In this document: positions 1,528 to 59,458 of the stretch, in pieces | How the letters are laid out: the number at the start of each line of letters is the position of its first letter | Numbering within the stretch: position 1 is the stretch's first letter | NCBI GenBank assembly: GCA_964415615.1 | Contig: CAYQAW010000002.1 | Span: 1,897-65,896, forward strand | Origin: an uncultured Gammaproteobacteria bacterium | GTDB taxonomy: Bacteria > Patescibacteriota > Microgenomatia > Daviesbacterales > UBA10151 | Direction: 5' to 3' | DNA length: 64,000 nt | Program-made: the position numbers and the translations under genes | Notes under the pieces: generated by a model | What the model was told of the DNA's origin: nothing | Databases searched by the model: none | Seen by the model: the letters and a program-made list of their open reading frames with translations, nothing else

Positions 1528-1858
1528 TAAGCATCCTTCCTATTAATTCTGTGGCTGTTTGTGTCAATGTTTTTATTAGTGAAGGTGTTTGTGGATTAGA
1601 TAAGGAAACAACCGCAATAGAGGTTCCAGCGCCAACTGCTGCAGTAGTAGTAAGAACTAATGGGCGGTACCATTTATCCTGAGGTTGTCTGCCACCTGAG
1701 AAAATCTCTTTTACAGAAGTGGGGAATTCTCTAAAATTTACCCCTTGACTGAAAGCCAATTTTAAGGTACCGTTAATAGATAACGGTGTCTCTGTGGAAG
1801 GAGCGCTGTTTCTTTTTTGGTTTGAAACGGATCCGTCCAAACCTTCTTTAATATTCAT
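1520..1858 (-). CDS. Small hypothetical protein with one predicted TM segment.
   Basis: ORF of 112 aa. Hydrophobic stretch LVLTTTAAVGAGTSIAVV. Start overlaps the stop of the downstream gene (operon-like). Confidence 0.35.
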   Translation of the reverse strand: MNIKEGLDGSVSNQKRNSAPSTETPLSINGTLKLAFSQGVNFREFPTSVKEIFSGGRQPQDKWYRPLVLTTTAAVGAGTSIAVVSLSNPQTPSLIKTLTQTATELIGRMLNG

Positions 1859-1975
1859 AGGTTATCCTATAGAATAAAATACAATAACTGGATTATACCA
1901 TACCTCTACAAAATAGAGCAATTTGTTGTGGGAAAATTTGACAAAGCATACTATCAAGAAACATAATAACTTAGT

Positions 1976-2470
1976 ATGGATATTCAGGTAATTTGTGGGG
2001 TAGGCAGTGGCAGGACCACACTGTCTGCTTTTGATGCTGCTTTAAAAGATGCTGGAGTTTACAACTATAATTTAATTACCCTGTCTTCTATTATTCCTCC
2101 TGGATCTATTGTTTCCAAGATGAAAAGATATAATTCCCCTCATGCTGAATATGGTCATAAATTATATGTCATCAAAGCAGAGATCAGGAGTGAAGAAGCA
2201 GGCAAATTTATAGCTGCAGGGTTGGGTTGGTACCAAATAGAAGACGGCAGGGGTATGTTTGTAGAACATGAGATTAAAGGGGAGACCAGGCTGGCAGTAG
2301 AGTCTGAAATTGAAAGCAGAATCAGTAGATCTTTAAAGGATTTATGCAGGTTTAGACACATTAAGTTTGATCCTCAAAAGGCTAAATCAGCTACTTCCAT
2401 TACCCAAATCAAGGATCACCCTACCTCTGTTTTAGTTTTAGCTGTTTATCAATCAGAAGGCTGGGAATAA
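1976..2470 (+). CDS. pdaD: Pyruvoyl-dependent arginine decarboxylase (PdaD family).
   Basis: About 165 aa with an N-terminal GxGxG-like motif. It has the family's self-cleavage Ser-Ser site in the context NLITLSSIIPPG and the pattern typical of the PvlArgDC family. Confidence 0.7.
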   Translation: MDIQVICGVGSGRTTLSAFDAALKDAGVYNYNLITLSSIIPPGSIVSKMKRYNSPHAEYGHKLYVIKAEIRSEEAGKFIAAGLGWYQIEDGRGMFVEHEIKGETRLAVESEIESRISRSLKDLCRFRHIKFDPQKAKSATSITQIKDHPTSVLVLAVYQSEGWE

Positions 2471-2529
2471 TTTTATTAAAATCTATCAGCTTGTTTTAGC
2501 TTTTAAAGTTGGAGTATAATTGATGTGTT

Positions 2530-2739
2530 ATGCAGGCAATTGATTGGAGTGGAATATATAAAAATTATAAGGGTCTATGGGTAGCTTTGGCTAAAGATGA
2601 GCAAACTGTTCTGGCCTCAGGAAAAACTGCTAAAGAAGCATGGGATCGGGCTTTGAAAAAAGGTTTTAAGAAGCCGATTTTAACCCGTATGCCTACAAAG
2701 CTTATCACTTATGTAGGGTTCACAGTTAATGAAATTTAA
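2530..2739 (+). CDS. Small hypothetical protein (DUF5678-like), translationally coupled to the downstream aspartic protease.
   Basis: ORF of 69 aa whose stop overlaps the next start. Similar small proteins are commonly paired with retropepsin-like proteases. Confidence 0.4.
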   Translation: MQAIDWSGIYKNYKGLWVALAKDEQTVLASGKTAKEAWDRALKKGFKKPILTRMPTKLITYVGFTVNEI

Positions 2740-3121
2740 ATATAAAAGCTACGGATCAGATATCTTAAGACCAGTCATTCCTATAGAGATTAAGTACAAT
2801 AATTTAGAAGTTCCTTATGAAGTACTAGTTGATTCAGGTGCGGATATATGTATTTTTGATGCAGGTCTTGCTGAGATTTTGGATATTGATCTTGTAAAAG
2901 GGGTCAAGAAACAAATTATAGGTGCTACTGGATTTCCAGAGGATGTATATCTTCATACGGTTTATATTGTGGTTAATAGTTTTGAATTTAAAATTGAAGT
3001 TGGGTTTATGGATATTCGTTCCAATTCATATGGAATTGTTGGACAGAAAGGCTTTTTTGATATTTTTATAGTCAAATTTGATCTACCCAAGAAGATAATA
3101 GAATTAAAATCAGGGAACTAG
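2729..3121 (+). CDS. Retropepsin-like (clan AA) aspartic protease.
   Basis: Catalytic motif in the context VLVDSGADICIF (D-S/T-G-A), followed by a hydrophobic flap region. Length 130 aa is typical for single-domain retropepsins. Confidence 0.55.
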   Translation: MKFKYKSYGSDILRPVIPIEIKYNNLEVPYEVLVDSGADICIFDAGLAEILDIDLVKGVKKQIIGATGFPEDVYLHTVYIVVNSFEFKIEVGFMDIRSNSYGIVGQKGFFDIFIVKFDLPKKIIELKSGN

Positions 3122-3148
3122 ATTAGAATATGATGGGTATAAATTTTA

Positions 3149-3682
3149 TCACCTGGGTAATTTATTAATATTTAATAACTCCATAAATAAAAGCACTTTT
3201 ATTACTGGTGATGTGGGATGGTAGTTATATGCTGAGTGGGGTTTAATAGGAACAACATCAAAAGGTTTTACCGAAAGTCCTCTGATAAATTGTTTTGCTT
3301 CTTCTAGTACTTGTCCAATTTCAAGGTTAGTAGAATCATTTTTAATTACTCCTACACCTGAGTACAAACAGGGTTTTACCTCACCTGTATATATAACACG
3401 AGGATATCTAATTCCTTCGCCACACTGACCTAACCTGAAGCGATTACAACATCCACCCCCATATAGCATATTTAAGACGTGTATCTTTGTAATACCCATG
3501 ATGAATTGTTCGTAACCATAATTTACTCCATCTCCTGTACTAGAAGCAGTATGTTGTGCACCATTTTTTAATACTTTGTTCCCTTCAGAAATAAAAAGCG
3601 GTCTGTTTTTATTAAAATATTCTTTTTGCAGGTCAATACATAAAAGAGCTAAATTTTGCTTCATAAAAGATTTAATACGCAC
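3149..3682 (-). CDS. Hypothetical Cys-containing protein (GGGCCNRF...C...C), co-directional with the ArgG-like gene.
   Basis: ORF of 177 aa with a cluster of five Cys residues. Its start overlaps the end of the upstream ArgG-like ORF. I recognise no family. Confidence 0.4.
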   Translation of the reverse strand: MRIKSFMKQNLALLCIDLQKEYFNKNRPLFISEGNKVLKNGAQHTASSTGDGVNYGYEQFIMGITKIHVLNMLYGGGCCNRFRLGQCGEGIRYPRVIYTGEVKPCLYSGVGVIKNDSTNLEIGQVLEEAKQFIRGLSVKPFDVVPIKPHSAYNYHPTSPVIKVLLFMELLNINKLPR

Positions 3683-4800
3683 CTAGAGAATGGTCCTGTT
3701 TTATTAATCTGTTTTCTGGAATATTTGAAGAACCAATTATAACGTGTCCTTTAAACAATTTTCCAACAACTCTACCTTGAACTCTGGTTTGAAAAGCTAT
3801 GGCTAGCTCGGATAATTCTCTTCTATTGGCATCGAACCAACCTCCACGGTAGACTATTTCACCCCACTCTTGATCCATATTTCTTTTTATCCTTCTTTCT
3901 GTTTGGATTAATACTGCCGATTCGATAAATCTATGCAAAGTATATATTAATTCACTAGCTGGAGATTCGTAAATTCCCATTTCCTTGTGTCCTAACTCCG
4001 GAATAGTATCCTCAAAACCAATAATTCTTCCTATACCATGAGCTGCTCCAAGCTGACTACAACGTATAACAATTTGATAAAGTGGCATTTCCTGTCCATC
4101 TATTGCTATAGGAATACCATTTATAAAATCTAAAGAGAAATTTTGAGCTATATCAGGAGTTTCACTTAATGGTTTAGTTAAAGTAAAAACATTTTTTTCT
4201 TCAATGTCACTTAAGTCATTTAGAGGATCTCCTTCTATAGGCTCTGCCCCAAATATTTTGATCTTCAGCAAATAAGGCACCTTTACCTGATGTAATGCCA
4301 AATCTTTCAAGAAATTGAATCTTTTCTATCCTACTTTGAGGGTTTGTGACAAAAGGACCAATAGGCACCATATTTGGATATAGCGAGCAAGCTTTCTCGA
4401 TTCTATATCTGGTGTTTTGTTTGGCTGTGCAGCCATGAATTACATATGCAGGTCTGTCGTCTGGTAAAAACCTGGCTGCAACTTCCATAATATATGCTCT
4501 CGAAAGAGGAGTGATTAAGGGATATCCCCAATAATTACCATTCATCCGGATAGCTTCAGATAGGTAATTGGTTGCAAACGATTCTTTACCGTCAGTTGTT
4601 TTAAAATCCATACCCAACATTAGAGCTCGTTTGGCTGCCCGTTCAATACTATCTTGAGATTCACCAAGGTCTATCATCAGAAGAAGTATTGGGCAATGAA
4701 GTCTTTCTTTAGCAAGTAAAGGAGCTGCTGTTGAATCTACTCCTCCAGAGTAAAGAGCTACAGCACCATAATTTAGAGCTATTTCTTGAGTTGCTGGCAT
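3672..4800 (-). pseudogene. Argininosuccinate-synthase-family PP-loop ATPase split into two overlapping ORFs (4216..4800 and 3672..4310) by an apparent frameshift.
   Basis: N-terminal ORF has the PP-loop YSGGVDST and the ArgG-like HGCTAKQNTRYRIE motif. C-terminal ORF has GIYESPASELIY, resembling the ArgG C-terminal region. The two ORFs are in different frames, overlap by 95 nt and together reach about ArgG length (roughly 380 aa). Confidence 0.5.
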
Positions 4801-4801
4801 G

Positions 4802-4942
4802 TTATTGAATTTCTAATATGACTACTTTTTGAATTTTTTTATTTACTCTAAATTCAATTTCATCGCCTACTCTGTGTCCAAGAAGAGCTTGTGCGAGTGG
4901 GGTTTTAGCATCTAGTAACTTTATTTTCCGATTTCGTTTCAT
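4802..4942 (-). CDS. 46-aa ORF matching the C-terminal FKBP-like domain of GreA/GreB; it has no N-terminal coiled-coil, so it is either a gene remnant or a stand-alone mini-protein.
   Basis: Hand translation: MKRNRKIKLLDAKTPLAQALLGHRVGDEIEFRVNKKIQKVVILEIQ*. It matches the GreA C-terminal pattern (SP-A-ALLG--VGD--E). It is below the length cut-off of the ORF track. Confidence 0.35.
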   Translation of the reverse strand: MKRNRKIKLLDAKTPLAQALLGHRVGDEIEFRVNKKIQKVVILEIQ

Positions 4943-4991
4943 ATTTACAAGACGACTATCCCATTTTTATGATGCCTAGGCCATGACAAGT

Positions 4992-5010
4992 TTGTCAGGA
5001 AAGCTGACAA
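4992..5010. promoter_or_regulatory. 7-bp inverted repeat TTGTCAG-N5-CTGACAA plus a direct TGACAAG repeat immediately upstream of the HTH-STAND gene; candidate operator.
   Basis: Seen directly at 4984-5011 (TGACAAG TTTGTCAG GAAAG CTGACAAG). A TAGAAT -10-like hexamer sits at 5020-5025. The downstream gene starts with an HTH-like domain. Confidence 0.3.
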
Positions 5011-5032
5011 GCTTTGTGGTAGAATCGCCCTA

Positions 5033-7087
5033 ATGATTGGAGCAGCAGATAGGTTTAGAGTGCTTTTTAAAAAGTATCGATTAAAATCTGAAATTTCTAC
5101 CCTTTCGCAGTTGGGCCGTTTGCTTGCTGAAAAAGGGTTTGTCTACGAAGATAGTATTTTTTCCCACTGGCAAAAGGGGACCAGGATTCCTCAAAACCGC
5201 ACAGTTATCTTGAAACTTCTTGAAATTTTCGTTGAACGGAAAGCTATTGATTCACTTAGTCAAGCTAATGAGCTTCTAGCATCAGCAAATCAAGGATATT
5301 TATCTGAAAAAGAGTTACAGAAAATTCCAATAAAACTTAGTAACCCAATATTTCAAGTTCCTAATGAGATTACTGATTTTCAAGGAAGAGAAAAAATTAT
5401 AGATGAACTTATTAATAAAAAGAACATTGAAGGAAAAATTATACTCATTCATGGCGCTGCCGGAGTGGGGAAGACAGCATTGGCAATAAAACTAGGTCAT
5501 CTTTTGAAAGATAGGTTTAAGGACGGGGTTTTATGGTACAAGGTTGAAGAAGATAATATCATGGATATTCTTCTTTCAATAGCGCATTTATTTGGTGAAG
5601 ATATAAGTAATATCAATAATTTACAAGTTAGAGCAACTATTGTTAGATCGTTGCTTGCTGCTAAAAATGTCTTACTCTTCCTTGATAGTGGTGAATTATA
5701 TGATGATATCCATTTACTGATACCTAATTCTCCAGTTTGTACAACTATTATTACATCTCAAAAAGGTCATTTGAAAACCCCGATTCGTTTTATAGATATT
5801 CAGTTAAATCCCTTTACTGACAGTGAGGTTTTATCTCTTTTTAAGGATATTTTAAAAGATAAATTTAAAAAAAATAGTCCAAATGATCTTCTTAAAGTTA
5901 CCAAGAAGGTGGAGAACCTGCCACTGGCTGTTCATATTTTGGCTAGACAGTTATTACATTCAAAACTTAGCGCTATTCAGTTTCCCAGTTTGCTTAGTAA
6001 TGAAAAGTCTGTTTTTCAAGATTTGTATTATGAAGATAAAAATTTATATGCAGCTATTGCTGCCAGTTATAACAAACTTGATAGTATAATGAAATCAGTT
6101 CTAGTATCTGCTTCTATATTTAAAGGAAAAGATTTTTCCCTCAAAACCATAGGGTATATAAATGGTCTTTCAATACCAGCTACAACCAAAACTCTACAAG
6201 ATCTGGTTGATCTTTCTCTTATTGAACATTCATTAAAAAATAGATACAGAATACATCCGGCAATAAAAGATTTTGTCCGAAACAAATTGGATTACCCTCG
6301 ATCATCATATTTAATGATTATTGCTATCTTCATATTTTCCTTTTTCGTCACATGGTGGGTTTTTCTTCAGCTGTTTATTGATAAAAATAACTTCATGTAC
6401 CATATTTTTTCAGCAACCTATGGTCTGATGGCGGTTTTTGGAGGAATCTGGGGAATCCATACCTCATTGAATTGGGGAGGTTTTAAAACACTTATTGGCA
6501 AAGCTATTTTTATGTTTTCATTGGGGTTTTTTGCACAAGTGTTTGGACAAATTGTTTATTCTTATTATTCTATTTTCCATCAGATAAAAGCACCGTATCC
6601 TTCTATTGGAGATATTGGTTATTTCGGTACAATCCCTTTTTACATATATGGAGTAATTTTGCTGGCAAAATCTTCAGGCATCAAGATTAATATTCAATCC
6701 TTCAAGAAGAAAATGATTGCTTTGGTAATTCCAATTATTATACTGACAATAGGTTATATTCTTTTCTTACGAAATTACACTTTTGATTGGAGTAATCCTT
6801 TGAAAGTTTTCCTGGATTTTGGGTATCCTTTCGGTGAAGCAATTTATATCTCTATTGCCATAATAACATTTATTTTTTCAAGAAATATCATGGATGGTAT
6901 TTTGAGGTCAAAAGCATTATTAGTATTGGTTGCGCTTGTTTTCCAATTTCTTGCTGACTATGTCTTTCTATATAACTCGAGCAGTTTTTATTCTGGAAAT
7001 TATATGGATTTTATTTATCTTACTGCTTATTTCGTAATGACAGTAGCACTCTTAAGTTTAAGGTCGCTTCATGTCAAGGTGTATTAA
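5033..7087 (+). CDS. Multidomain protein: N-terminal HTH-like region, NB-ARC/STAND-type P-loop NTPase, and a C-terminal polytopic membrane domain (about 250 aa, 6-7 TM).
   Basis: Walker A in the context ILIHGAAGVGKTALA. A hhhhD Walker B-like LLFLDSGE. A TTR-like ITSQK. The C-terminal domain is clearly paralogous to the stand-alone ORF 8341..9141; shared blocks are WGG(F/W), Y(Y/S)SI, PYPS(I/F)(G/A)D(I/A)GYF, VFLDFGYP(F/L)GE and FQFL(A/T)(D/E)Y. Confidence 0.7.
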   Translation: MIGAADRFRVLFKKYRLKSEISTLSQLGRLLAEKGFVYEDSIFSHWQKGTRIPQNRTVILKLLEIFVERKAIDSLSQANELLASANQGYLSEKELQKIPIKLSNPIFQVPNEITDFQGREKIIDELINKKNIEGKIILIHGAAGVGKTALAIKLGHLLKDRFKDGVLWYKVEEDNIMDILLSIAHLFGEDISNINNLQVRATIVRSLLAAKNVLLFLDSGELYDDIHLLIPNSPVCTTIITSQKGHLKTPIRFIDIQLNPFTDSEVLSLFKDILKDKFKKNSPNDLLKVTKKVENLPLAVHILARQLLHSKLSAIQFPSLLSNEKSVFQDLYYEDKNLYAAIAASYNKLDSIMKSVLVSASIFKGKDFSLKTIGYINGLSIPATTKTLQDLVDLSLIEHSLKNRYRIHPAIKDFVRNKLDYPRSSYLMIIAIFIFSFFVTWWVFLQLFIDKNNFMYHIFSATYGLMAVFGGIWGIHTSLNWGGFKTLIGKAIFMFSLGFFAQVFGQIVYSYYSIFHQIKAPYPSIGDIGYFGTIPFYIYGVILLAKSSGIKINIQSFKKKMIALVIPIIILTIGYILFLRNYTFDWSNPLKVFLDFGYPFGEAIYISIAIITFIFSRNIMDGILRSKALLVLVALVFQFLADYVFLYNSSSFYSGNYMDFIYLTAYFVMTVALLSLRSLHVKVY

Positions 7088-7121
7088 ACACAAGATTATT
7101 ATGTGATAATATTTATATCAA

Positions 7122-7502
7122 ATGGATGTTGTAATAAATTTTTTCTCCAAAACTTGGGGATTATTCTGGTCTATCTGGCCCAAAAGTTTTTGGTTTTTGG
7201 TACTTGGATCAGCGGTAGCTGAAGCTATTTCTGTAACTGTTTTTAGGGTAGTGGGCAATAGAGGGTGGTTTGCTATTTTAGGTTATGTTTTGGGTTTTCT
7301 AACAGTTGCTTTTTATGCAGAAAGTCAGAAATATTCAACTTTATCTGCGTCATATCCTATATGGTTAGCAGCGGTGGCAGTATTGGTTAGTTTCAGCGCT
7401 TTTTTTATCTTTCGTGAGCAAGTCTCTCTAAAATGGGTCATAGGGTTTATACTAACAATAGTAGGAATACTGCTTATACAAACTTCGATTCCCGAAAAAT
7501 AG
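7122..7502 (+). CDS. Small 4-TM membrane protein, DMT/EamA/SMR-like.
   Basis: 126 aa with four hydrophobic helices. It sits between the STAND-membrane fusion and the methyltransferase. Confidence 0.45.
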   Translation: MDVVINFFSKTWGLFWSIWPKSFWFLVLGSAVAEAISVTVFRVVGNRGWFAILGYVLGFLTVAFYAESQKYSTLSASYPIWLAAVAVLVSFSAFFIFREQVSLKWVIGFILTIVGILLIQTSIPEK

Positions 7503-7506
7503 TATT

Positions 7507-8295
7507 ATGCACAAAGTTGTAATTGAACCGGAATTCGAAAGCTTTGAGCCAAAACATTACTTGAAAGCTTATTATTCTAAAGTTGGTTCTGAAAATCTTA
7601 GTCTTTTGGAATTTTTCTCAAAGATTTATCAAGATATACCAAAAGGTTCAATTTTGCTTGAATTTGGAGGTGGGCCGACAATATATCCCTTAATAACTGC
7701 AGCTTCAAAAGTTAAAGCTATTCATTTTGCAGATTATTTAGATACAAATTTGGATGAAATTAGATTATGGAAGAATAATTCTGAAGAAGCTTTCAATTGG
7801 CGCAAATATTTCAAAAAAGCTCTATTCCTAGAAGGAAATAAAAGGGTGACAAAAAAACAGATTATTGCCAGAGAAAAATTGGTAAGAAAGAAAATTACGA
7901 GATTTTTACATTGTGATGCATTTAAAAAAGATCCAATAGATAAAAAATACCGGAATTTCTATGATATTATAAATACAAATTTTGTCACAGAGTCTATTAC
8001 AGATAATAAATATATTTGGGAAAGTCTGATTGCTAATGTTTGTTCAATGCTAACAAAAGATGGAATACTTATTATGACAGCAATTAAAGATGCAAAATAT
8101 TACCACGTTGGTAAAAAAACTTTTCCTGCTACCAGGATTATAGAAGAGGATATAATCCAAGTTTTAACAAAGCTGGGATTTGAGGAGACGAGTTTTTCTT
8201 CATACTCTATACCAGCTGAAGTTGAGGATGAACAGTTAGTCGGTTATACAGGATATAAAGGGATAATTTTCTTAAAGGCAAAAAATAGAGGTTAA
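7507..8295 (+). CDS. NNMT/PNMT/TEMT-family SAM-dependent small-molecule N-methyltransferase homolog.
   Basis: N-terminal FEPKHYLKAYYS parallels the family signature F-P-DYL--YY. It is followed by the SAM motif I in the context LLEFGGGPTIYPL (compare animal NNMT D-G-SGPTIYQL) and an acidic motif II context HFADYLDTNLDEI. Confidence 0.6.
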   Translation: MHKVVIEPEFESFEPKHYLKAYYSKVGSENLSLLEFFSKIYQDIPKGSILLEFGGGPTIYPLITAASKVKAIHFADYLDTNLDEIRLWKNNSEEAFNWRKYFKKALFLEGNKRVTKKQIIAREKLVRKKITRFLHCDAFKKDPIDKKYRNFYDIINTNFVTESITDNKYIWESLIANVCSMLTKDGILIMTAIKDAKYYHVGKKTFPATRIIEEDIIQVLTKLGFEETSFSSYSIPAEVEDEQLVGYTGYKGIIFLKAKNRG

Positions 8296-8340
8296 TCTAT
8301 CGCTTGCTTTTTAAAAAACTTTAATCTATTCTAAATTTAG

Positions 8341-9141
8341 ATGTTAAAAACAATAATAGAATCAAAATTTACTTATTGGATTGTTTTTCTTTATCTTCTG
8401 ACGTTCGCTTGGTGGGTATATCTTCAATTAGGTAATTTAACCAATACCATGCAAGCTTACCTATTCGATTGGTTTTATGGTCTAATCGGTTTTAGTGGTG
8501 CATTGTATGGTCTTTATATTTCTTTTAAAAAATGGGGTGGTTGGAATAGTATTTTAGGAAGGGGGTTAATTTTATTACCTTTTGGATTGCTCGGTCAATG
8601 GTTTGGTTTGCAGGTTTGGACATATTATAATGTGATAGCAAAAGTTGAAACACCTTATCCTTCTTTTGCAGATGCTGGTTATTTTGCACTTATACCAGCG
8701 TATACTTTAGGCGCCTTAATGTTTGCCTGGGCAGCAGGGGCAAAATTTTCACTTAAAACTAAAAGAGGAAAAATAGGAGCGTTATTTATTCCTTTAATTG
8801 CACTTGCTTTTGCTTACGTTCTTTTTCTAAAAGATATAGGTTTTGATACTTCTGATCTGGTAAAAACATTTTTAGATTTTGGGTATCCTTTAGGAGAAAT
8901 CTTGCCAGTTTCAATAGCCTTATTCACCTTGACGTTGTCGAGAAGCCTTTTGGGTGGCACCATGAGAAGTAGGATTTTATATTTGATAGGCGCTTTTTTC
9001 TTCCAATTTTTAACTGAGTATGGTTTTTTATACGCTGCAGGAGCAGGTACATATGTTAATGGTGGATGGAATGACTTAATGTATTTTACTTCCTATGCAA
9101 TTATGAGTATTGGTTTAATTTCATTTAAATCATACGATTAA
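8341..9141 (+). CDS. Polytopic membrane protein; stand-alone paralog of the C-terminal membrane domain of ORF 5033..7087.
   Basis: Colinear similarity over about 250 aa to residues roughly 430-680 of the fusion protein (blocks listed for that feature). Confidence 0.6.
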   Translation: MLKTIIESKFTYWIVFLYLLTFAWWVYLQLGNLTNTMQAYLFDWFYGLIGFSGALYGLYISFKKWGGWNSILGRGLILLPFGLLGQWFGLQVWTYYNVIAKVETPYPSFADAGYFALIPAYTLGALMFAWAAGAKFSLKTKRGKIGALFIPLIALAFAYVLFLKDIGFDTSDLVKTFLDFGYPLGEILPVSIALFTLTLSRSLLGGTMRSRILYLIGAFFFQFLTEYGFLYAAGAGTYVNGGWNDLMYFTSYAIMSIGLISFKSYD

Positions 9142-9146
9142 AACTT

Positions 9147-9425
9147 ATGGATCCGTATGTTTTGGCAGTCAGCAGGATAATAAAGGAGCAGCAATCGATC
9201 ATTGGACCGATTGCTCTAGATCAGGCCAAAAAAGTGGCTGGGCTGGAATTTAGTGGAGTAGATGATGTTAAAATTACTGGTAATAAAAAGGAAGTCCTAA
9301 CAAATCTGGTTAATCAGTTTGCCAAACTTTTTGGACAAGCCTCAGTTGAAGTATGCAAAGAAGCTTTTTCTCAAGTTTCAGATAAAATTAATCCCTTAGA
9401 AGTACCTGATATTCTCAAAAACTGA
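9147..9425 (+). CDS. Hypothetical protein (92 aa).
   Basis: ORF with good coding look. Tightly spaced after the preceding gene. No recognisable motif. Confidence 0.35.
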   Translation: MDPYVLAVSRIIKEQQSIIGPIALDQAKKVAGLEFSGVDDVKITGNKKEVLTNLVNQFAKLFGQASVEVCKEAFSQVSDKINPLEVPDILKN

Positions 9426-9449
9426 TAATTTGTGTTACCATAGTTTTGC

Positions 9450-10793
9450 ATGGTCTCTGAAGATAAAATATCTGCTTTTTTAAAGCTTCAACAACTTGTT
9501 TTAGATATAGAAGATAGCTCTAAATTATTAGAACAAGTTTTGCCACAAGTATTTGTAGCGCTTCAGTCAATTGGTTGCCCCTATATCTTTTTATCCGCCA
9601 TGTTTACTGATGAGAGCGGGCAAGTTAAGCAATCATTTTTTGTTGATTCATCCGGAAATAAGTCTCCTATAAACCAAAACGGTATATTTCAAAAAGGCAG
9701 CGAGTGGGAAATGAAGGTGATGTATGGTGAAGCAGCTGTTGTTTCTGATGTAGCTTATTTTATTAATTCTTCTTACCCAAAGTTTCATGAAATATATTCT
9801 TTACTAGTTTTACCAATACAACATGCCCGTGATCTCAGAGGTATTTTGGTATTAGGAAGCTCTAAAAATGCTTCTCAAATTGATTCAGAAGAAATTGAGT
9901 TTGGAGAAATGTTAACAAAGCTTGTTGATCTTTCCTTTAGGCTACAAGATACAGAAAGTTCTCTGCTTAATATCACTCAACAGGTTTACGAAATGAATGC
10001 TAAATTGCATCAGCTGGATAAACTAAAAGATGATTTTGTCTCAGTTGCCTCACACGAACTCCGGACTCCTATGACTGCGATCCGTTCTTATGCCTGGATG
10101 GCTTTGCACAAATCAGATGTTCCTCTGTCAGAGAAACTGGAGAAATATTTGATCAGAGTACTGATTTCTACAGAACGTTTGATTAATCTGGTCAACGACA
10201 TGTTGAATGTTTCCAGAATTGAATCAGGCAGTATTGAGATAAGTCCAGAGCCGGTGGATCTTTTGTTGCTTATCAAAGATATTGTTGATGAAGTTTACTA
10301 CTCAAAAGCGCGGGAGAAAGTTATCCAATTTGTAGTGCTGGAGAAAAAGATTCCTAAGGTGTTTGCTGATCCTGAAAAACTCCGACAGGTCCTCCTTAAT
10401 TTAGTAGGAAATTCATTAAAGTTTACGCCTGATGGAGGAAAAATTGTTTTTGATTTTTTTAGTGATGGGAAGCTAGTAGAAACTTCTGTTTCAGATACTG
10501 GAGTAGGTATATCAAAAGAGGATATGAGTCAGTTATTCCATAAATTTGGCAGGCTGGATAATTCTTATACAGCATCTGCAACTTCTGGTGGAACAGGTTT
10601 GGGTCTTTTTATATCCAAAAACCTGGTAGAACTCATGCATGGCAGGATCTGGGTTGTCTCAGAAGGATTAGGGAAAGGATCAACTTTTAATGTGTCTTTG
10701 CCTGTTGCTGCTCCTGAGGTTTTGAAAGAAGCAGAAAAATATAAAGTAAGGGCGCAGGGCGAAGCAAAGGGGCTGGAACCAGTAGCAATATGA
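9450..10793 (+). CDS. Sensor histidine kinase with a soluble N-terminal (GAF-like) sensor region, HisKA and HATPase_c.
   Basis: H-box in the context SHELRTPMTAI. N-box NLVGNSLKFT. G-boxes DTGVGI and GGTGLGL. No obvious TM segments. Confidence 0.8.
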   Translation: MVSEDKISAFLKLQQLVLDIEDSSKLLEQVLPQVFVALQSIGCPYIFLSAMFTDESGQVKQSFFVDSSGNKSPINQNGIFQKGSEWEMKVMYGEAAVVSDVAYFINSSYPKFHEIYSLLVLPIQHARDLRGILVLGSSKNASQIDSEEIEFGEMLTKLVDLSFRLQDTESSLLNITQQVYEMNAKLHQLDKLKDDFVSVASHELRTPMTAIRSYAWMALHKSDVPLSEKLEKYLIRVLISTERLINLVNDMLNVSRIESGSIEISPEPVDLLLLIKDIVDEVYYSKAREKVIQFVVLEKKIPKVFADPEKLRQVLLNLVGNSLKFTPDGGKIVFDFFSDGKLVETSVSDTGVGISKEDMSQLFHKFGRLDNSYTASATSGGTGLGLFISKNLVELMHGRIWVVSEGLGKGSTFNVSLPVAAPEVLKEAEKYKVRAQGEAKGLEPVAI

Positions 10794-10805
10794 TACAATC
10801 AAATT

Positions 10806-11201
10806 ATGGATAATCAGCAAAAAAAGATCCTTATAGTTGAAGATGATCAATTCTTGAGAGAGTTTTATCAGGAACTTCTGCAGGGAGAACAATATCTGGT
10901 AGAAGTGGCAGCTGATGGGGAAGTGGGTTTAGCAAAGCTTAGAGAAGGCGGTTATAGTCTGGTCATGCTGGATATTATGTTACCCAAAAAGGATGGTTTG
11001 CAAATACTGCGTGAATTAAAAGCTCAACCATCAAGCAATAAAAATGATTCTATTGTGATACTTACCAATCTAGGCCAGGATGCAATCATTAAGGAATGTT
11101 TTAATTTAGGCGCAGATGGGTATTTAATAAAATCTGCCTTAAATCCTGATCAGGTTTTAACAGAGGTTAGAAGTTATTTAGAAAAAAATAATGCCTCTTA
11201 A
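10806..11201 (+). CDS. Single-domain response regulator (CheY-like receiver only).
   Basis: ILIVEDD. The phospho-acceptor Asp is in the context LDIMLPKKDG. A conserved downstream Lys in the context LIKS. 131 aa with no output domain. Confidence 0.8.
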   Translation: MDNQQKKILIVEDDQFLREFYQELLQGEQYLVEVAADGEVGLAKLREGGYSLVMLDIMLPKKDGLQILRELKAQPSSNKNDSIVILTNLGQDAIIKECFNLGADGYLIKSALNPDQVLTEVRSYLEKNNAS

Positions 11202-11257
11202 GATTGTTTTCCAAGATGACCATCTACTGGTGGTGCTTAGTAGTATACTATTAAATA

Positions 11258-12361
11258 TTGAATACACTTCTTAGAAGAATTGGGGATATAAGTAATATAA
11301 AGCCTTTTCTAAATTGTGTTCATGGGGGTAAAAATGCGCTTAACTCACTAAATAAAGATAGAATTCTCGATTTTAGTGTTAGCATTAATCCATATGGGCC
11401 ACCGGCTGAGATACAGTTAGGCCTTAATTTAAGCGATGTTAGAGAATACCCAGATCCTCAAAGTAACGAATTAACGAAATTGCTTGCATGTATCAATAAT
11501 CTAGATGAGGAAAATCTTTTTATCGGGAATGGCTCAGCTGAAATCATCACACTACTCTTTTTCTGTTTTGTACGGAAGAAAGATGTTGTTGTTTCTCTGT
11601 GGCCGAGTTTTGGAGAGTATTTCCATTATGCACAAATTACACAATCGAAATTTGTACCTATAAAACTTAATCTACCTGATTTTAGGTTAGATTTAGATAC
11701 AATTAGCAAGATAATAAAAAAGCAACAGCCGAAACTTTTTTTCTTCTGTAATCCGAATAACCCTACGGGTAATTATTATAGTGAGAAAGAAGTTATACAA
11801 ATTCTAGAACAATTATCGCAGAATACATTATTTATTTTGGATGAAGCCTACGTAAATCTAGTGTTATCTAAATGGAGTTCAGTGAATTTATTAAAACAGT
11901 TTAAAAATATGATTATTCTGCGTTCGTTAACAAAAGATTATGCATTAACTGCACTACGTTTAGGTTATAGTATGGCTGCAAAAGAGATAATATCTTTATT
12001 AAGAAGTGCGTGCCCTTCGTGGAATATTAATACCCTAGCTCAACGTAATGGTATACATATTTTTAAGAATGGAACCTTTTTAAAAAACAGTGCATTGCTT
12101 CTCCATAAGGAAAAAAATAGAATTGAGAAAATTTTAAAAAAACTTGGCTACAGTATATTACCATCCTCGGTGAATTTTTTTCTTTTAAAAGTGAAGAATG
12201 CTAAGGAAGCAACTGACATATTATTATCGAATAATATCTATGTTCGTGATTGTACGGATTATGATTTACCTCAATATCTGAGGATAAGTGTTAGGTTAGC
12301 TCAGGAGAATAATTATCTGTTGAAAGTTTTAAGTGATTTAGTATATAAGATTAGAATATGA
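11258..12361 (+). CDS. Class I/II PLP aminotransferase, HisC/CobD-like (histidinol-phosphate aminotransferase family).
   Basis: Conserved blocks: NPYGPP, NPNNPTGNYY, and the PLP lysine in the context SLTKDYALTALRLGY. Confidence 0.65.
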   Translation: MNTLLRRIGDISNIKPFLNCVHGGKNALNSLNKDRILDFSVSINPYGPPAEIQLGLNLSDVREYPDPQSNELTKLLACINNLDEENLFIGNGSAEIITLLFFCFVRKKDVVVSLWPSFGEYFHYAQITQSKFVPIKLNLPDFRLDLDTISKIIKKQQPKLFFFCNPNNPTGNYYSEKEVIQILEQLSQNTLFILDEAYVNLVLSKWSSVNLLKQFKNMIILRSLTKDYALTALRLGYSMAAKEIISLLRSACPSWNINTLAQRNGIHIFKNGTFLKNSALLLHKEKNRIEKILKKLGYSILPSSVNFFLLKVKNAKEATDILLSNNIYVRDCTDYDLPQYLRISVRLAQENNYLLKVLSDLVYKIRI

Positions 12362-13010
12362 ATAAAATATACAAGGATTGGGTAGAATATTATCAAATTA
12401 AAGGGTTGAAGGGTGGTGATATTAATGAAGTGAGCGGTTACGCTCATGGTTTAGCACAACTTACTGAAAAAGGTTTAGAATCTATTGTTGCTGTTGCAAG
12501 AACTGTTTTAGATCTTAGTTCGAAGGATAGGTTACTTGTGACGTGGGTTGCGGAGCAGGATTAATTACCGACCAATTAGTAAGCAAAGCCAGCATCGTAG
12601 TTGGTATAGATGCAAGCTCCAATATGATTGGGAATGCCGATAAAGAAAGTAAATTTGTCAAAGTGGTAGCAATGGCAGATTGTTTGCCGTTTCCTGACAA
12701 GTCGTTTGATAAAATATTTTGTCATTCAATATTTCAGTATTTTCCTAATTATAAATATGCTGCTCGAGTTATTAAAGAAATGCTGAGAGTGCTTTGTAAT
12801 GGAGGCAAATGTCTGATTATGGATGTACCGGATATCGAGAAGAAAGAATCATATTTTAAAGTTAAAACTCCAGATTCGCATAACCTAAAGAGAAGATTTT
12901 ATAATAAAGAGTGGTTTATTAATTTAGTCCCAAATACTCGAATCCTTAGGCACAGAATACCCAATTATAAAAATTCCCATTTTAGATTTAATGTATTAAT
13001 TCAGAAATAA
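12358..13010 (+). pseudogene. Class I SAM-dependent methyltransferase (Methyltransf_11-like) apparently split by a frameshift near 12535-12545 into ORFs 12358..12564 and 12543..13010.
   Basis: The upstream 68-aa ORF ends ...DLSSKDRLLVTWVAEQD*. Shifting frame at the same place reads ...DVGCGAGLITD, the canonical SAM motif I of the downstream ORF. Together they make a methyltransferase of about 220 aa. Confidence 0.45.
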
Positions 13011-21673: not shown

Positions 21674-22345
21674 ATGCCTCACAGGTTTGTGGTTTTAGCC
21701 AATGATGAAATCTATCATGTATTTAACCGCTCTATTGCTGGGACAAACATATTTGCCCAAAATCAGAAGGTAAATTTAAATAAGGCTATAGAAATAGTAA
21801 ATTACTATCGATTTCCTCAAAAAATTAGATTATCTAGATTTAAAAGCCTTCCTGAGCAATTGAAGAAGCAATATTTAGATGCTCTAGGAGGTGTTATGCC
21901 CTTGGTTGAGATTTATGCTTTTGCTTTTATGTCAAACCATTTTCATTTTCTACTCAAACAGATTCGAGACAAAGGAGTTGCTATATTCCTTGCAAATTTC
22001 CAAAATAGCTTTGCTAAGGTATTTAATCTAAAAAATGATCGGAGTGGTGCTTTATTCCAAAATGCTTTTAAAGCCAAAAGAATTGTAACTGAGGAACAAT
22101 TTATCCATGTCTCGCGCTACATTCATTTAAACCCAGTCACTGCATATATCATTGAATTTGATAAGCTAGCAAGTTTTGAGTGGACTTCATATTCTGTATA
22201 TGCTGCAGATAAACAAATTCCTTTTATCAGTTCCATTTTCTTGCTAAAAATGTTTGGGACAAAGGAAAAGTATATTAAATTTGTTGCTGATCAGGTAGAT
22301 TATCAGAGAAAGTTGGCTTATATTAAAGATTTAATAATGGAATAA
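21674..22345 (+). mobile_element. IS200/IS605-family Y1 (HUH) transposase homolog of the RAYT type, flanked by REP-like hairpins.
   Basis: HUH motif in the context SNHFHFLLKQ. The catalytic Tyr region is near the C-terminus. Paralogous to ORF 58811..59458. Confidence 0.7.
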
Positions 22346-27045: not shown

Positions 27046-28281
27046 ATGAAAAAAAAGTTATTTTTTGTAGTGTTGATAGGATTTATTTTAGGTTCTATTT
27101 TTGTTTTACCATCTGGAGTAAAAGCTGATCCTGATTACAGTAGGTGTAATCAGTATGCTAATGGAGCTCATAATCCATCGCTTCCTAGTAACCAAAATTG
27201 TAATTGGAATTGGCGATATAACAATAGTAATCCTGCTGACGGATGCTATGGTGGTGAATGGTTAGGAGATTGTTCCTCCAGTGCTGCTCCAACAGCTGCT
27301 CCAACAGCTGCTCCAACAGCTGCTCCAACAGCTGTTCCAAGTTGTTCTGTGAGCTGGAATGTCGTCCCTGCAACAGTTGCTGCCAATACTGATTTTACCA
27401 TCAGTTTTACTCAAAGAACCAGTAATGTGGGATGGGATTATGGTAGTTTGTATTTGGATGGCACATATATAGATCATACTAAGGGGAAAATATGCGGGGT
27501 TACTCCCGGGGATACACTTGGCTGTCCTGACGGTGATGTTCAATTTGGAGCCTGGGGAGGCCTTAATTCAGGGGCAGCTGGTACTCATACTTTAACCTGG
27601 AAAGTGCCTAACCGTAATATTCCTGGAGTAACATTTAACAGCTCCCCTGCTACTACGTGTACTCCATCTGCTACTTTTGTTGTTCCAAGTTGTTCTGTTA
27701 CCTGGAATGTCCCTGCAACAGTTGCTGCCAATACTGATTTTACCATCAGTTTTACTCAAAGAACCAGTAATGTGGGATGGGATTATGGTAGTTTGTATTT
27801 GGATGGCACATATATAGATCATACTAAGGGGAAAATATGCGGGGTTACTCCCGGGGATACACTTGGCTGTCCTGACGGTGATGTTCAATTTGGAGCCTGG
27901 GGAGGCCTTAATTCAGGGGCAGCTGGTACTCATACTTTAACCTGGAAAGTGCCTAACCGTGGAGGAACTTGGGGAAGTACGTCTGCTACTACGTGTACTC
28001 CATCTGCTACTTTTGTTGTTCCAACAGCAACTCCAACAGCTGCTCCAACAGCTGCTCCAACAGCTGCTCCAACAGCAACTCCTGTTGCTTCCTGTAGTGT
28101 CAGTGGTGATATTGATGGCAATGGACGTATTGAACAGGCAGACTTTGATAAGTGGAAAAGCGCTTTTATTAATGGGAATTCTATTATAAATGTCCCTCCT
28201 GCTCTTAATAATTGCGCAGATGTGGCAGTAGATCTGGTGCTTTTTAACGCTTGGAGGAGCCAATCTGTAAGACTAAGATAA
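27046..28281 (+). CDS. Secreted repeat protein: signal peptide, (AAPT)n linkers, two near-identical tandem domains of about 115 aa, and a C-terminal dockerin-like calcium-loop module.
   Basis: Signal context VLPSGVKA. Linker APTAAPTAAPTAAPTA. Repeat A (27340-27684) and repeat B (27689-28022) are nearly identical at the nucleotide level. C-terminal motif GDIDGNGRIEQADFDKW fits the dockerin/EF-hand-like D-x-D-x-N-G-x-I-x-x-x-D loop. Confidence 0.6.
   Translation: MKKKLFFVVLIGFILGSIFVLPSGVKADPDYSRCNQYANGAHNPSLPSNQNCNWNWRYNNSNPADGCYGGEWLGDCSSSAAPTAAPTAAPTAAPTAVPSCSVSWNVVPATVAANTDFTISFTQRTSNVGWDYGSLYLDGTYIDHTKGKICGVTPGDTLGCPDGDVQFGAWGGLNSGAAGTHTLTWKVPNRNIPGVTFNSSPATTCTPSATFVVPSCSVTWNVPATVAANTDFTISFTQRTSNVGWDYGSLYLDGTYIDHTKGKICGVTPGDTLGCPDGDVQFGAWGGLNSGAAGTHTLTWKVPNRGGTWGSTSATTCTPSATFVVPTATPTAAPTAAPTAAPTATPVASCSVSGDIDGNGRIEQADFDKWKSAFINGNSIINVPPALNNCADVAVDLVLFNAWRSQSVRLR
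27340..28022 (+). repeat. Two tandem copies of a roughly 345-bp coding repeat, more than 95% identical.
   Basis: The stretches 27370-27600 and 27720-27950 read identically. Confidence 0.8.
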
Positions 28282-29795
28282 TGAATAACATAAAAGAGAG
28301 ATTAATTGATGTTAGGGATTTGCTGCAGGGGCATATCTTAGCCCTGATTATAATTTTAGTGATTGTGATTGGTATACCTATCACCTTTTATCTGGCCAAA
28401 CAACAACAGGATTTGCGGTCAAAAGCAACTGATGCTGGCCGTTTGGTATTTATACCACCTACCCCAACAGGATCTGTGAATATAAACAGCGCCTTTGATC
28501 TGGAGTTTGGCATTAATTTAAATCCGGCGGCGCGGATCACCGGAGCTGATGTAACTATTAGTTATACTAATAACCTGCGGCTGGATACTTTTTTGAAAGA
28601 TACGACTGTTTTACCGGAAGAGATCCTGAATAATAGCAATCCTGCTGTAAATCCTATAACTTTACATTATGTTGCTGTTAGTAAGAGTGGTGATTTGGCT
28701 TCCCGAACTTATGTTCCGTTAGGAAAGCTTACTTTTACAGCCATCAGCGCCGGGTCAGCAACAATTACTGTTATTACCAATCAGATTGTTGCTAAAGATC
28801 AACCAGGTACCCTGGCAATTGGAAATGCAACTACTACTTATACTGTTGCTGCCCGCGTTAATGGTGCCTGGTCTGTTTGGAGCGGAGGTACTTGTACTGT
28901 AACTTGTGATGGAGGTACTTTAACCGGAGAAACCAGGACATGTTATGCGCCTGCTGGTGGCGGAACAGAATGTACCAGGCTTGATAATACTCAGACCAAT
29001 TCTGAGAACTGGACTGATACCAGGTCGGGAGTGACAGCATGCAATACTCAAGCCTGTCCTGTTAATGGTGCCTGGTCTGCTTGGAGCGCTTGTTCAGCAA
29101 CAGCTTGTGGTACTTCTGGAACACAAACTAGAACATGTGATAATCCTTCACCATCAAATGGTGGGAGTGCCTGTACTGGGTCAGCTACCCAAGCTTGTGC
29201 TGCCTCTGCCTGTGCTGTTAATGGTGCCTGGTCTGCTTGGAGCGCTTGTTCAGCAACAGCTTGTGGTACTTCTGGAACACAAACTAGAACATGTGATAAT
29301 CCTTCACCATCAAATGGTGGGAGTGCCTGTACTGGGTCAGCTACCCAAGCTTGTGCTGCCTCTGCCTGTGCTGTTAATGGTGCCTGGTCTGCTTGGAGCG
29401 GAGGTACTTGTACTGTAACTTGTGGTGGAGGTACTCTAACCGGAGAAACCAGGACATGTTCTGCGCCTACTGGTGGCGGAACAGAATGTACCATGCTTGA
29501 TAATAGGACGCTGACTACTCCTACCAACCGGACTGAAACCAGGTCGGCAGTGACAGCATGCAATACTCAAGCCTGTCCCTGTATTAATGGGGATACTATA
29601 GGTGGTAACTCATGTGTGAGCATTGATGACTATAATACCTGGTATAGTGAATTCACAGGAGCAGTTACTACAAAAACAGCTGATTTTTATTCAGTATGTA
29701 ATAGTAGTAACCAAAAAGGAGATGGGGTGATTGATATTAATGATTATAATATTTGGCGCAGGGAATTTGATGCCAACAGTCACCGATGTACGTAA
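28281..29795 (+). CDS. Membrane-anchored surface protein: signal-anchor, cohesin-like domain, five thrombospondin type-1-like (TSP1) repeats, and a C-terminal dockerin-like module.
   Basis: Probable start is the ATG in TAATG overlapping the upstream stop. TM helix ILALIIILVIVIGIPITFYLA. Cohesin-like pattern ITGADVTISYTNNLRLDT...GKLTFTAISAGSATITV. TSP1 repeats of the form WS-WS...CS-TCG-G-Q-R-R-C...GG--C-G...C. C-terminal dockerin-like context DGVIDINDYNIWRREF. Confidence 0.65.
   Translation: MNNIKERLIDVRDLLQGHILALIIILVIVIGIPITFYLAKQQQDLRSKATDAGRLVFIPPTPTGSVNINSAFDLEFGINLNPAARITGADVTISYTNNLRLDTFLKDTTVLPEEILNNSNPAVNPITLHYVAVSKSGDLASRTYVPLGKLTFTAISAGSATITVITNQIVAKDQPGTLAIGNATTTYTVAARVNGAWSVWSGGTCTVTCDGGTLTGETRTCYAPAGGGTECTRLDNTQTNSENWTDTRSGVTACNTQACPVNGAWSAWSACSATACGTSGTQTRTCDNPSPSNGGSACTGSATQACAASACAVNGAWSAWSACSATACGTSGTQTRTCDNPSPSNGGSACTGSATQACAASACAVNGAWSAWSGGTCTVTCGGGTLTGETRTCSAPTGGGTECTMLDNRTLTTPTNRTETRSAVTACNTQACPCINGDTIGGNSCVSIDDYNTWYSEFTGAVTTKTADFYSVCNSSNQKGDGVIDINDYNIWRREFDANSHRCT
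28857..29580 (+). repeat. Five tandem TSP1-like coding repeats; the central two (about 174 bp each, roughly 29044-29391) are nucleotide-identical.
   Basis: Seen in sequence. The antisense ORFs over this span are repeat artefacts. Confidence 0.8.
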
Positions 29796-29798
29796 AAT

Positions 29799-50567: not shown

Positions 50568-52511
<1,944 letters not shown>

Positions 52512-58810: not shown

Positions 58811-59458
58811 TTAACTATATTCCTCTACCAGTTGGTGTTTTATAATTTCCAGTTCTCTGCCATAATCTGCCCGATCAGCAACGAATTTCTGATAATCTTT
58901 TGGTAATTTGAACTGATTTAGAATAATTTCTTTAGCACAGATTTTTTGAGTACTTAGCCCAATATATTCCAGATAAGATGACCAGCGGTAATCTTCTAGG
59001 TCTTTTACTAAACCTGAAACTAAGGGATTTAGATGGATATATCTGCTAAGATGTAATAACTGCTCATTACTTTCCACCAATACTGATTTGAACTCTCCTT
59101 GCAGAAGAGGCCCAACTCTACCATGCTTAATGTTGAAATACTTAGTATAACTATTGCTTAATTTACTGATAAATTCAGTTATGCCACCATCAATTAATTG
59201 TTTAATCAGGAAATGGAAATGGTTTGGCATTAAACAAAAGCAGATAATCTCGACTATCTGCTTGCTTGTGTCTAATAGATTATTAGTTGGCGCAAACAGG
59301 GAAAATCTGGGTTTTGGCCCAAGTATTTTGTAATAAAGCATGGTTTTTAAAAATCTTTGATAGTGATATGAGTTTTTAAAGATATTCATTTTGTCCACAC
59401 CCCTGTTGAAAATATGGTAATACTCCCCATTAACTAATGGATGAATTCTTGAAGGCAT
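58811..59458 (-). mobile_element. Second IS200/IS605-like Y1 (RAYT-type) transposase gene, flanked by REP-like hairpins.
   Basis: HUH motif in the context PNHFHFLIKQ. Paralog of 21674..22345. The 22-mer CGATTACACCCTTGGGGTGTAA sits at 58783-58804 and again at 59497-59518, followed by three tandem GTAAGTATGGGGT copies. Confidence 0.7.

Follow-up and report, generated by a model that had tools for sequence, protein, structure and literature searches.

A bacterial NNMT/PNMT/TEMT-family methyltransferase linked to arginine-type decarboxylases, with agmatine as its candidate substrate

We analyzed a 64,000-nt stretch of contig CAYQAW010000002.1 (assembly GCA_964415615.1; hereafter, the window) and found that it encodes a genuine bacterial member of the methyltransferase family that includes the animal enzymes NNMT, PNMT, and INMT. 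The enzyme family itself is known, and the novelty of the window protein lies in its context and its probable substrate. Members of its clade are regularly encoded beside, or fused to, arginine-type decarboxylases, which would make agmatine the most likely substrate. Judging from sequence and gene order, we favor, with confidence a little above even, a reading in which the methyltransferase N-methylates agmatine made by a linked decarboxylase.

The methyltransferase gene is a single open reading frame (ORF) running from ATG to stop (7507..8295, + strand) and encoding 262 aa. Its protein matched the Pfam profile PF01234 (NNMT_PNMT_TEMT) with an E-value of 4.3e-41 and 141.3 bits, far above the gathering score of 25, and the alignment placed residues 10 to 231 on profile positions 13 to 238 of 261. 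The runner-up, Methyltransf_23, reached an E-value of 6.6e-4 and 19.9 bits, below its own cutoff. A generic methyltransferase identity was rejected, with Methyltransf_23, Methyltransf_12, Methyltransf_31, and MTS all scoring below cutoff versus 141 bits for PF01234. The initial annotation had proposed homology to PF01234 from three sequence blocks; hmmscan confirmed it by a wide margin, and the best profile was PF01234 rather than the generic Methyltransf_11, _12, or _25. All of the quoted blocks occur in the protein, namely, FEPKHYLKAYY (residues 13 to 23, whereas it was first described as starting the protein), LLEFGGGPTIYPL (residues 50 to 62), and HFADYLDTNLDEI (residues 73 to 85). Searching the PDB by sequence returned NNMT (E-value of 2.7e-22), INMT (3e-19), and PNMT (1e-18). 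Independent public contigs, including that of locus L001, carry an identical protein.

Two bacterial NCBIfam models exist for this superfamily. SCO2525 (NF040568) scored 57.1 bits (E-value of 1.8e-15) against a cutoff of 240, which places the window protein outside that family, whereas GntF (NF041360) scored 130.3 bits against a cutoff of 60 over the full length of its 273-position model. GntF is the predicted N-methyltransferase of guanitoxin biosynthesis in cyanobacteria, an arginine-derived pathway (PMC10673588). This score, together with the GntF name already given in GenBank to a homologue from a Bdellovibrionota metagenome-assembled genome (MAG), could be taken to mean that the window protein is a guanitoxin-type GntF orthologue making a cyclic-guanidine natural product, which we regard as very improbable. 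A score of ~130 bits over 273 positions is a distant match, and within the 64-kb window none of the other gnt genes (hydroxylases, cyclodehydratase, aldolase, kinase, and O-methyltransferase) adjoins the gene; the sole GntC-like match is a generic HisC/CobD-type aminotransferase (96.5 bits versus a cutoff of 415). Furthermore, the host is a small-genome bacterium of the candidate phyla radiation (CPR), not a cyanobacterium, and the conserved partners are decarboxylases and sensors. Context therefore does not support the GntF label that the NCBI cutoff would confer: the gene has no gnt cluster around it and belongs to another host phylum, and its product matches GntF only distantly. As for the Bdellovibrionota protein (P0044 in locus L008, named “guanitoxin biosynthesis ... 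GntF”), its neighbors are an adenylate cyclase-HAMP protein and unknowns, and its name is probably an over-annotation arising from the low 60-bit cutoff of the profile.

The family assignment is also backed by the predicted fold. The AlphaFold (AF2) model of the methyltransferase, built on 31 homologues, had a mean pLDDT of 95.5 and a pTM of 0.92, and its top 50 Foldseek matches in the PDB were all NNMT, PNMT, or INMT (TM-scores of 0.80 to 0.86, ~0.84; E-values of ~1e-24 to 1e-22). The model has a class I Rossmann methyltransferase fold with the N-terminal helical lid of these three enzymes. We then aligned the clade with human NNMT and PNMT, using reference sequences verified against the PDB. 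The residues aligned with the S-adenosylmethionine (SAM) site of human NNMT are Y18, Y22, Y23, E52, G54-G56, P57, T58, Y60, D76, Y77, N81, C136-D137-A138, and F159; specifically, Y20, Y24/Y25, D61, G63-x-G65-P-T, Y69, D85, N90, and D142 of NNMT correspond to Y18, Y22/Y23, E52, G54-G55-G56-P57-T58, Y60, D76, N81, and D137, respectively. Among the 31 homologues, Y18, G56, P57, T58, and Y60 are invariant, E52 and N81 are kept in 30, and position 76 is D or E in every sequence, while position 137 is D in 23 and N in 8. E162, the counterpart of PNMT E185 and NNMT D167, is E or D in 31 of 31.

The acceptor side of the pocket gave the opposite picture. The nicotinamide-binding residues D197, S201, and S213 of NNMT are replaced by A192, A196, and A208, alanine being the majority residue across the clade, and the catecholamine-binding residues E219, D267, and K57 of PNMT are replaced by A196, T248, and L33, with only the E185 equivalent (E162) kept. 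Because the cofactor-site residues are kept and the acceptor-recognition residues replaced, the methyltransferase is very probably active and SAM-dependent, with an acceptor differing from those of the animal enzymes; by the same replacements, the sequence indicates that it is not an orthologue of NNMT, PNMT, or INMT. The description “animal-type” in the initial annotation is misleading, given the 22 to 26% identity to the animal enzymes and the loss of their acceptor-site residues. Nothing in our analysis points to a recent animal origin.

The host of the window is a Candidatus Daviesbacteria genome (Microgenomates/Patescibacteria, CPR), as the GyrB encoded in the window shares 88 to 91% identity with proteins carrying that name. 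The family is uncommon in bacteria yet spread widely. A word-indexed search of 5.8 billion proteins returned 46 relatives, all with PF01234, and an exhaustive profile search of 1.84 billion cluster representatives returned 2,752 at an E-value of ≤1e-3 and 703 at ≤1e-30. Motif-seeded scans placed relatives in MAGs labelled Saccharibacteria, Gammaproteobacteria, Chloroflexota, Bdellovibrionota, Planctomycetota, and Actinomycetota, and also in Nocardia, and 35 more metagenome loci with relatives were recovered. Overall, genome matches covered at least seven bacterial phyla. The claim that the family is scarce in bacteria is therefore right in relative terms but has to be tempered by these numbers and by the two bacterial NCBIfam models.

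To compare gene context, ORFs were called in 57 loci and the neighbors of the methyltransferase were clustered. We counted linkage automatically in 25 non-redundant in-clade loci with at least 1.5 kb of upstream sequence, scoring a decarboxylase within four genes. Such a gene was present in 16 of the 25, compared with 0 of 9 loci in the outgroup clade, and in 13 of the 16 it encoded a homologue of pyruvoyl-dependent arginine decarboxylase (PvlArgDC), with orthologues directly adjoining the methyltransferase gene in many relatives. In a neighbor-joining tree, the decarboxylase-linked proteins formed one clade that includes the window protein (identical to that of L001). Two gene orders recur. 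The CPR type runs STAND-membrane protein, decarboxylase, small four-helix protein, methyltransferase, TM266 (a membrane protein of 266 aa), p92 (a protein of 92 aa), histidine kinase, and sometimes a response regulator, with a compact version in a Roizmanbacteria genome (response regulator, PvlArgDC, small membrane protein, methyltransferase, TM266, p92, and histidine kinase; L057). The Chloroflexota type runs hybrid kinase, response regulator, PvlArgDC, methyltransferase, and small four-helix protein.

The decarboxylase is swapped non-homologously between loci, being PvlArgDC, an AdoMet_dc homologue, or a pyridoxal phosphate (PLP)-dependent enzyme of the Orn_Arg_deC type, and one locus (L024) has both PvlArgDC and an AdoMet_dc homologue. 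Among the cluster representatives, the methyltransferase is also fused in single polypeptides to PvlArgDC (P0074), to AdoMet_dc (P0137), and to an OKR_DC_1 domain of the Orn/Lys/Arg decarboxylases (P0103), and these fusion proteins scored 228 to 270 bits against the clade profile. The product of decarboxylation is strongly indicated as the substrate of the enzyme, since four unrelated decarboxylase families adjoin or are fused to a single methyltransferase clade. All four families have arginine as a shared substrate class. AdoMet_dc homologues have repeatedly turned into arginine or ornithine decarboxylases, including in the CPR (PMC10407285). In a separate fusion, P0055 joins the methyltransferase to an LPG_synthase_C domain, and L018 has an LPG_synthase_C gene ~6 kb upstream of its methyltransferase gene.

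Second methyltransferases lie beside the NNMT-like one in three relatives: one has a guanidinoacetate N-methyltransferase (GAMT) homologue (E-value of 8.7e-45), and two have an enzyme resembling protein arginine methyltransferases (PRMT; E-value of 1.6e-16). Their presence suggests that the guanidino end is methylated as well. Because of these extra enzymes, and because GntF is the best named bacterial relative, a guanidino compound would be a plausible substrate.

The same enzyme class and the same decarboxylase link could instead serve a diamine or polyamine, i.e., putrescine, cadaverine, or an aminopropylated derivative, and yield an N-methylated polyamine, a reading that we consider unlikely, though it deserves to be kept in view. 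In its favor, ornithine and lysine decarboxylases are found among the Orn_Arg_deC_N and OKR_DC_1 families, which adjoin or are fused to the methyltransferase. An AdoMet_dc homologue can likewise be an ornithine decarboxylase or a true AdoMetDC (PMC10407285), L024 combines such a homologue with PvlArgDC, and the PvlArgDC of the module is divergent. However, PvlArgDC clearly outnumbers the other partners, the clusters showed no agmatinase, agmatine deiminase, or aminopropyltransferase, and the GAMT-like and PRMT-like enzymes point to the guanidino group. To our knowledge, all characterized members of the PvlArgDC family decarboxylate arginine. Putrescine or cadaverine is thus the less probable substrate, and agmatine the preferred one.

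The gene directly upstream of the methyltransferase gene, ending 4 nt ahead of its start, encodes a 126-aa membrane protein whose best matches are EbrB of the SMR family (E-value of 3.6e-7), EamA (5.8e-4), and Multi_Drug_Res (2.5e-3), all under the curated cutoffs. Its first transmembrane helix bears an acidic residue, the Glu of AVAEAIS, as read directly from the sequence. In most relatives, across phyla, this slot is held by a different four-helix family of ~120 aa, which lacks a Pfam match and has an invariant Asp in helix 1. Homology between the two was tried with hhalign, which found none, and we treat them as analogous. Two unrelated small proteins resembling cation transporters in one slot would fit export of a cationic product. 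The earlier suggestion that the locus handles a small amine is strengthened by this SMR/EamA-like neighbor and by the tie between the clade and decarboxylases of basic amino acids. In three further loci (L018, 6652-8001; L019, 7091-8011; L024, 4715-5962), a protein of 306 to 449 aa without a family match replaces the small membrane protein upstream of the methyltransferase gene; two of the three cluster by BLAST, and the third is grouped by position only.

In the pathway that we propose for the window, arginine would be converted to agmatine by the PvlArgDC encoded 5 kb upstream, and the methyltransferase would move at least one methyl group from SAM to the primary amino group of agmatine, much as GntF is predicted to act on a guanidino-amine in guanitoxin synthesis, giving one or more N-methylagmatines. 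The cationic methylated product would then cross the membrane, presumably outward, through the adjacent SMR-like four-helix protein, and the STAND-membrane protein, TM266, p92, the histidine kinase, and the response regulator would control or sense the process. More broadly, a cross-phylum module (CPR, Chloroflexota, Planctomycetota, and others) might be at work in which a decarboxylase, an NNMT-family enzyme, and a four-helix protein make and export N-methylated agmatine; in the CPR, this module would be wired to TM266/STAND sensors with p92 and the kinase, and the product could be an extracellular signal or an envelope or stress effector. We offer this wider picture tentatively, at less than even confidence.

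Several observations weigh against the agmatine reading. The window decarboxylase is not adjacent to the methyltransferase gene but lies six to seven genes away on the same strand, with minus-strand genes, including argG, in between. By the automatic count, 9 of the 25 in-clade loci have no nearby decarboxylase; the window is among these nine, and the decarboxylase-free loci include Saccharibacteria, Bdellovibrionota, and Gammaproteobacteria MAGs. Although it keeps the equivalents of the processing and active-site residues D35, N47, and S52-S53 of the Methanocaldococcus jannaschii enzyme, the window PvlArgDC scored 59.8 bits against an NCBIfam equivalog cutoff of 106.95, and its substrate might be other than arginine. 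The PLP decarboxylase families also use ornithine, lysine, and diaminopimelate, so that putrescine or cadaverine could be the amine supplied. The SMR-like assignment comes from sub-threshold matches, and the module of TM266, p92, and kinase also occurs apart from the methyltransferase, so that their link may be regulatory or merely positional. In the literature, we found no publication on such an enzyme or module, no paper linking PF01234 enzymes to agmatine or PvlArgDC, and no description of N-methylated agmatine as a bacterial metabolite in the literature searched. “N-methylagmatine” chemistry came up only for saskemycin, where it is proposed to arise from methylarginine and where an unrelated enzyme served as the search lead (PMC12637814).

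Some of these points would equally suit a detoxifying or housekeeping enzyme whose acceptor, as for the animal enzymes, is some unrelated small molecule (e.g., a pyridine such as nicotinamide, an aromatic amine, a thiol, or a xenobiotic), in a neighborhood assembled by coincidence. No decarboxylase gene adjoins the methyltransferase gene in the window, nine in-clade loci are without a nearby one, and enzymes of the NNMT and INMT families are known for broad acceptor ranges. Nevertheless, we think this quite unlikely, as the acceptor residues of NNMT (D197, S201, and S213) and PNMT (E219 and D267) are replaced, and three kinds of decarboxylase fusion together with cross-phylum synteny are hard to square with coincidence.

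The features of the window locus, and the second methyltransferases of the relatives, are collected in Table 1. The run of genes from the STAND gene to the response regulator gene lies entirely on the (+) strand, with intergenic gaps of 4 to 56 nt.

Table 1. Features of the methyltransferase locus in the window and of second methyltransferases in related loci
Feature	Position	Strand	Evidence or remark
Pyruvoyl-dependent arginine decarboxylase homologue (PvlArgDC), 164 aa	1976..2470	+	PF01862, E 9.7e-28, full length
Argininosuccinate synthase (arginine biosynthesis), split	3672..4800	-	between decarboxylase and STAND gene
STAND NTPase (NB-ARC) with C-terminal multi-helix membrane domain; candidate regulator/sensor	5033..7087	+	NB-ARC, E 2.3e-12
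Small four-helix membrane protein, 126 aa, SMR/EamA-like; candidate cation exporter	7122..7502	+	weak full-length matches
Predicted SAM-dependent N-methyltransferase, NNMT/PNMT/TEMT family	7507..8295	+	PF01234, GntF model, AF2/Foldseek, SAM-site alignment
TM266, 266-aa membrane protein without family	8341..9141	+	directly downstream of methyltransferase in CPR-type loci
p92, soluble 92-aa protein	9147..9425	+	always between TM266 and kinase; position +2 in 11 loci
Histidine kinase	9450..10793	+	HisKA 1.2e-16, HATPase_c 7.5e-26, GAF_2 3e-3 (weak)
Single-domain response regulator, 131 aa	10806..11201	+	matches L019 homologue (annotated PF00072 Response_reg) at E 2e-55
Second methyltransferase, GAMT-like or PRMT-like (L007)	6798-7556	-	beside NNMT-like methyltransferase
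Second methyltransferase, GAMT-like or PRMT-like (L010)	1664-2512		beside NNMT-like methyltransferase
Second methyltransferase, GAMT-like or PRMT-like (L027)	5027-5884		beside NNMT-like methyltransferase

The STAND gene is kept upstream of the methyltransferase gene in L007, L019, L020, and L024, and the C-terminal ~250 aa of its product are paralogous to TM266 (E-value of ~1e-54). A defense-system reading of the STAND cluster was tried and rejected, with 0 of 6 proteins matched by PADLOC. TM266 has no match in Pfam or NCBIfam. Its AF2 model (pLDDT of 88) comprises eight long, membrane-length helices, with no significant fold match in the PDB. We found 133 homologues of TM266, and those with a taxon name are from Roizmanbacteria, Daviesbacteria, or an unclassified Patescibacteria bacterium; of the 16 loci with a TM266 homologue, 15 have it at position +1. 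No family match was found for p92. The histidine kinase, which is found downstream of the methyltransferase in relatives too, has no N-terminal membrane segment apparent by eye. In 24 loci, covering two architectures, two-component genes are found no more than four genes from the methyltransferase gene. TM266, p92, and the kinase also occur in a related Daviesbacteria contig, where the 1.3 kb upstream, up to the contig end, contains no methyltransferase gene; the TM266-p92-kinase signaling module is therefore separable from the methyltransferase. Accordingly, the STAND-membrane genes are indeed neighbors, as the initial annotation had it, but they belong to a signaling module that also occurs on its own.

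This arrangement raises the idea that the methylated amine is a diffusible signal that is exported and sensed by the membrane domains of TM266 and the STAND protein, which would act through the kinase and response regulator in an autoinducer-like circuit in the CPR. The frequent two-component neighbors speak for it, as does the kinase lacking a membrane segment of its own by eye, and TM266 and the paralogous STAND-fused domain look like ligand-sensing membrane modules. We nevertheless have little expectation that such a circuit operates: the idea stems purely from gene context, the TM266-p92-kinase module also occurs apart from the methyltransferase, neither a ligand site nor a known fold was recognized in TM266, and two-component regulation of a stress pathway would explain the same data.

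Between the decarboxylase and STAND genes, argininosuccinate synthase is divided over two overlapping ORFs, 4216..4800 covering model positions 5 to 181 and 3672..4310 covering positions 180 to 356, both below the NCBIfam argG cutoff. The same split is present in the separately assembled contig of L001; a frameshift or pseudogene, a programmed shift, or a sequencing error common to both contigs could account for it. The locus has a GC content of 31 to 34%, slightly under the window mean, with 31 to 43% across the window. No RNA element in the window matched Rfam at gathering thresholds, and a promoter and terminator scan of 1800..12700 gave counts equal to the shuffled expectation.

Elsewhere in the window, a 155-aa Methyltransf_11 ORF (12543..13010, + strand) begins with GTG and matches its domain from profile position 3, which may reflect truncation or a misplaced start. 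Three consecutive large, apparently secreted proteins with internally duplicated Cys-rich and Pro/Thr/Ala-rich repeats, as read from the translations, are encoded at 27046..31643 (+). Two similar ORFs of ~215 to 223 aa, at 21674..22345 (+) and 58811..59458 (−), look by eye like relatives of IS200/REP-type tyrosine transposases. GyrB (645 aa; 50568..52505, − strand) is without an intein, whereas several close homologues (~1,080 aa, PF14890), one of them named Daviesbacteria, have one.

If the proposed activity is correct, it would be a new one, i.e., an agmatine or diamine N-methyltransferase of the NNMT family, and would define a new branch of bacterial polyamine or guanidino-amine metabolism in several poorly studied phyla, including the small-genome CPR. 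It would also correct a likely systematic mis-annotation, as clade members score above the lenient GntF cutoff and are being given the names of cyanotoxin biosynthesis enzymes. Finally, the methylated amine would be a chemical lead for the uncharacterized module of membrane sensor, STAND protein, and two-component system in the Microgenomates.

Among known systems, the animal enzymes NNMT, PNMT, and INMT (PF01234; PDB 3ROD, 1HNN, and 2A14) are alike in fold (TM-scores of 0.82 to 0.86), in length, and in their SAM-binding motifs, and PNMT and NNMT share with the window protein the acidic residue after strand 4 (E162, corresponding to PNMT E185 and NNMT D167). They differ in sequence (22 to 26% identity) and in the residues that recognize nicotinamide and noradrenaline, all of which are replaced, and the window protein is bacterial and lies in an operon context of decarboxylases, a small membrane protein, and sensors. 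Among named bacterial families, GntF, likewise a PF01234 enzyme, scores best. The reaction predicted for GntF, dimethylation of a primary amine beside a guanidine, is chemically similar to the one proposed here. Unlike GntF, the window protein is a distant match from another host phylum with no gnt cluster around its gene, and its partner is a decarboxylase rather than a series of hydroxylase, cyclase, aldolase, and transaminase. SCO2525 represents a second bacterial branch of the superfamily, to which the window protein does not belong (57 bits versus 240). The reaction proposed here is of the same kind as that of plant putrescine N-methyltransferase, which is unrelated in sequence to PF01234; that enzyme carries out SAM-dependent N-methylation of a decarboxylation-derived amine and evolved from spermidine synthase (PMC3725402).

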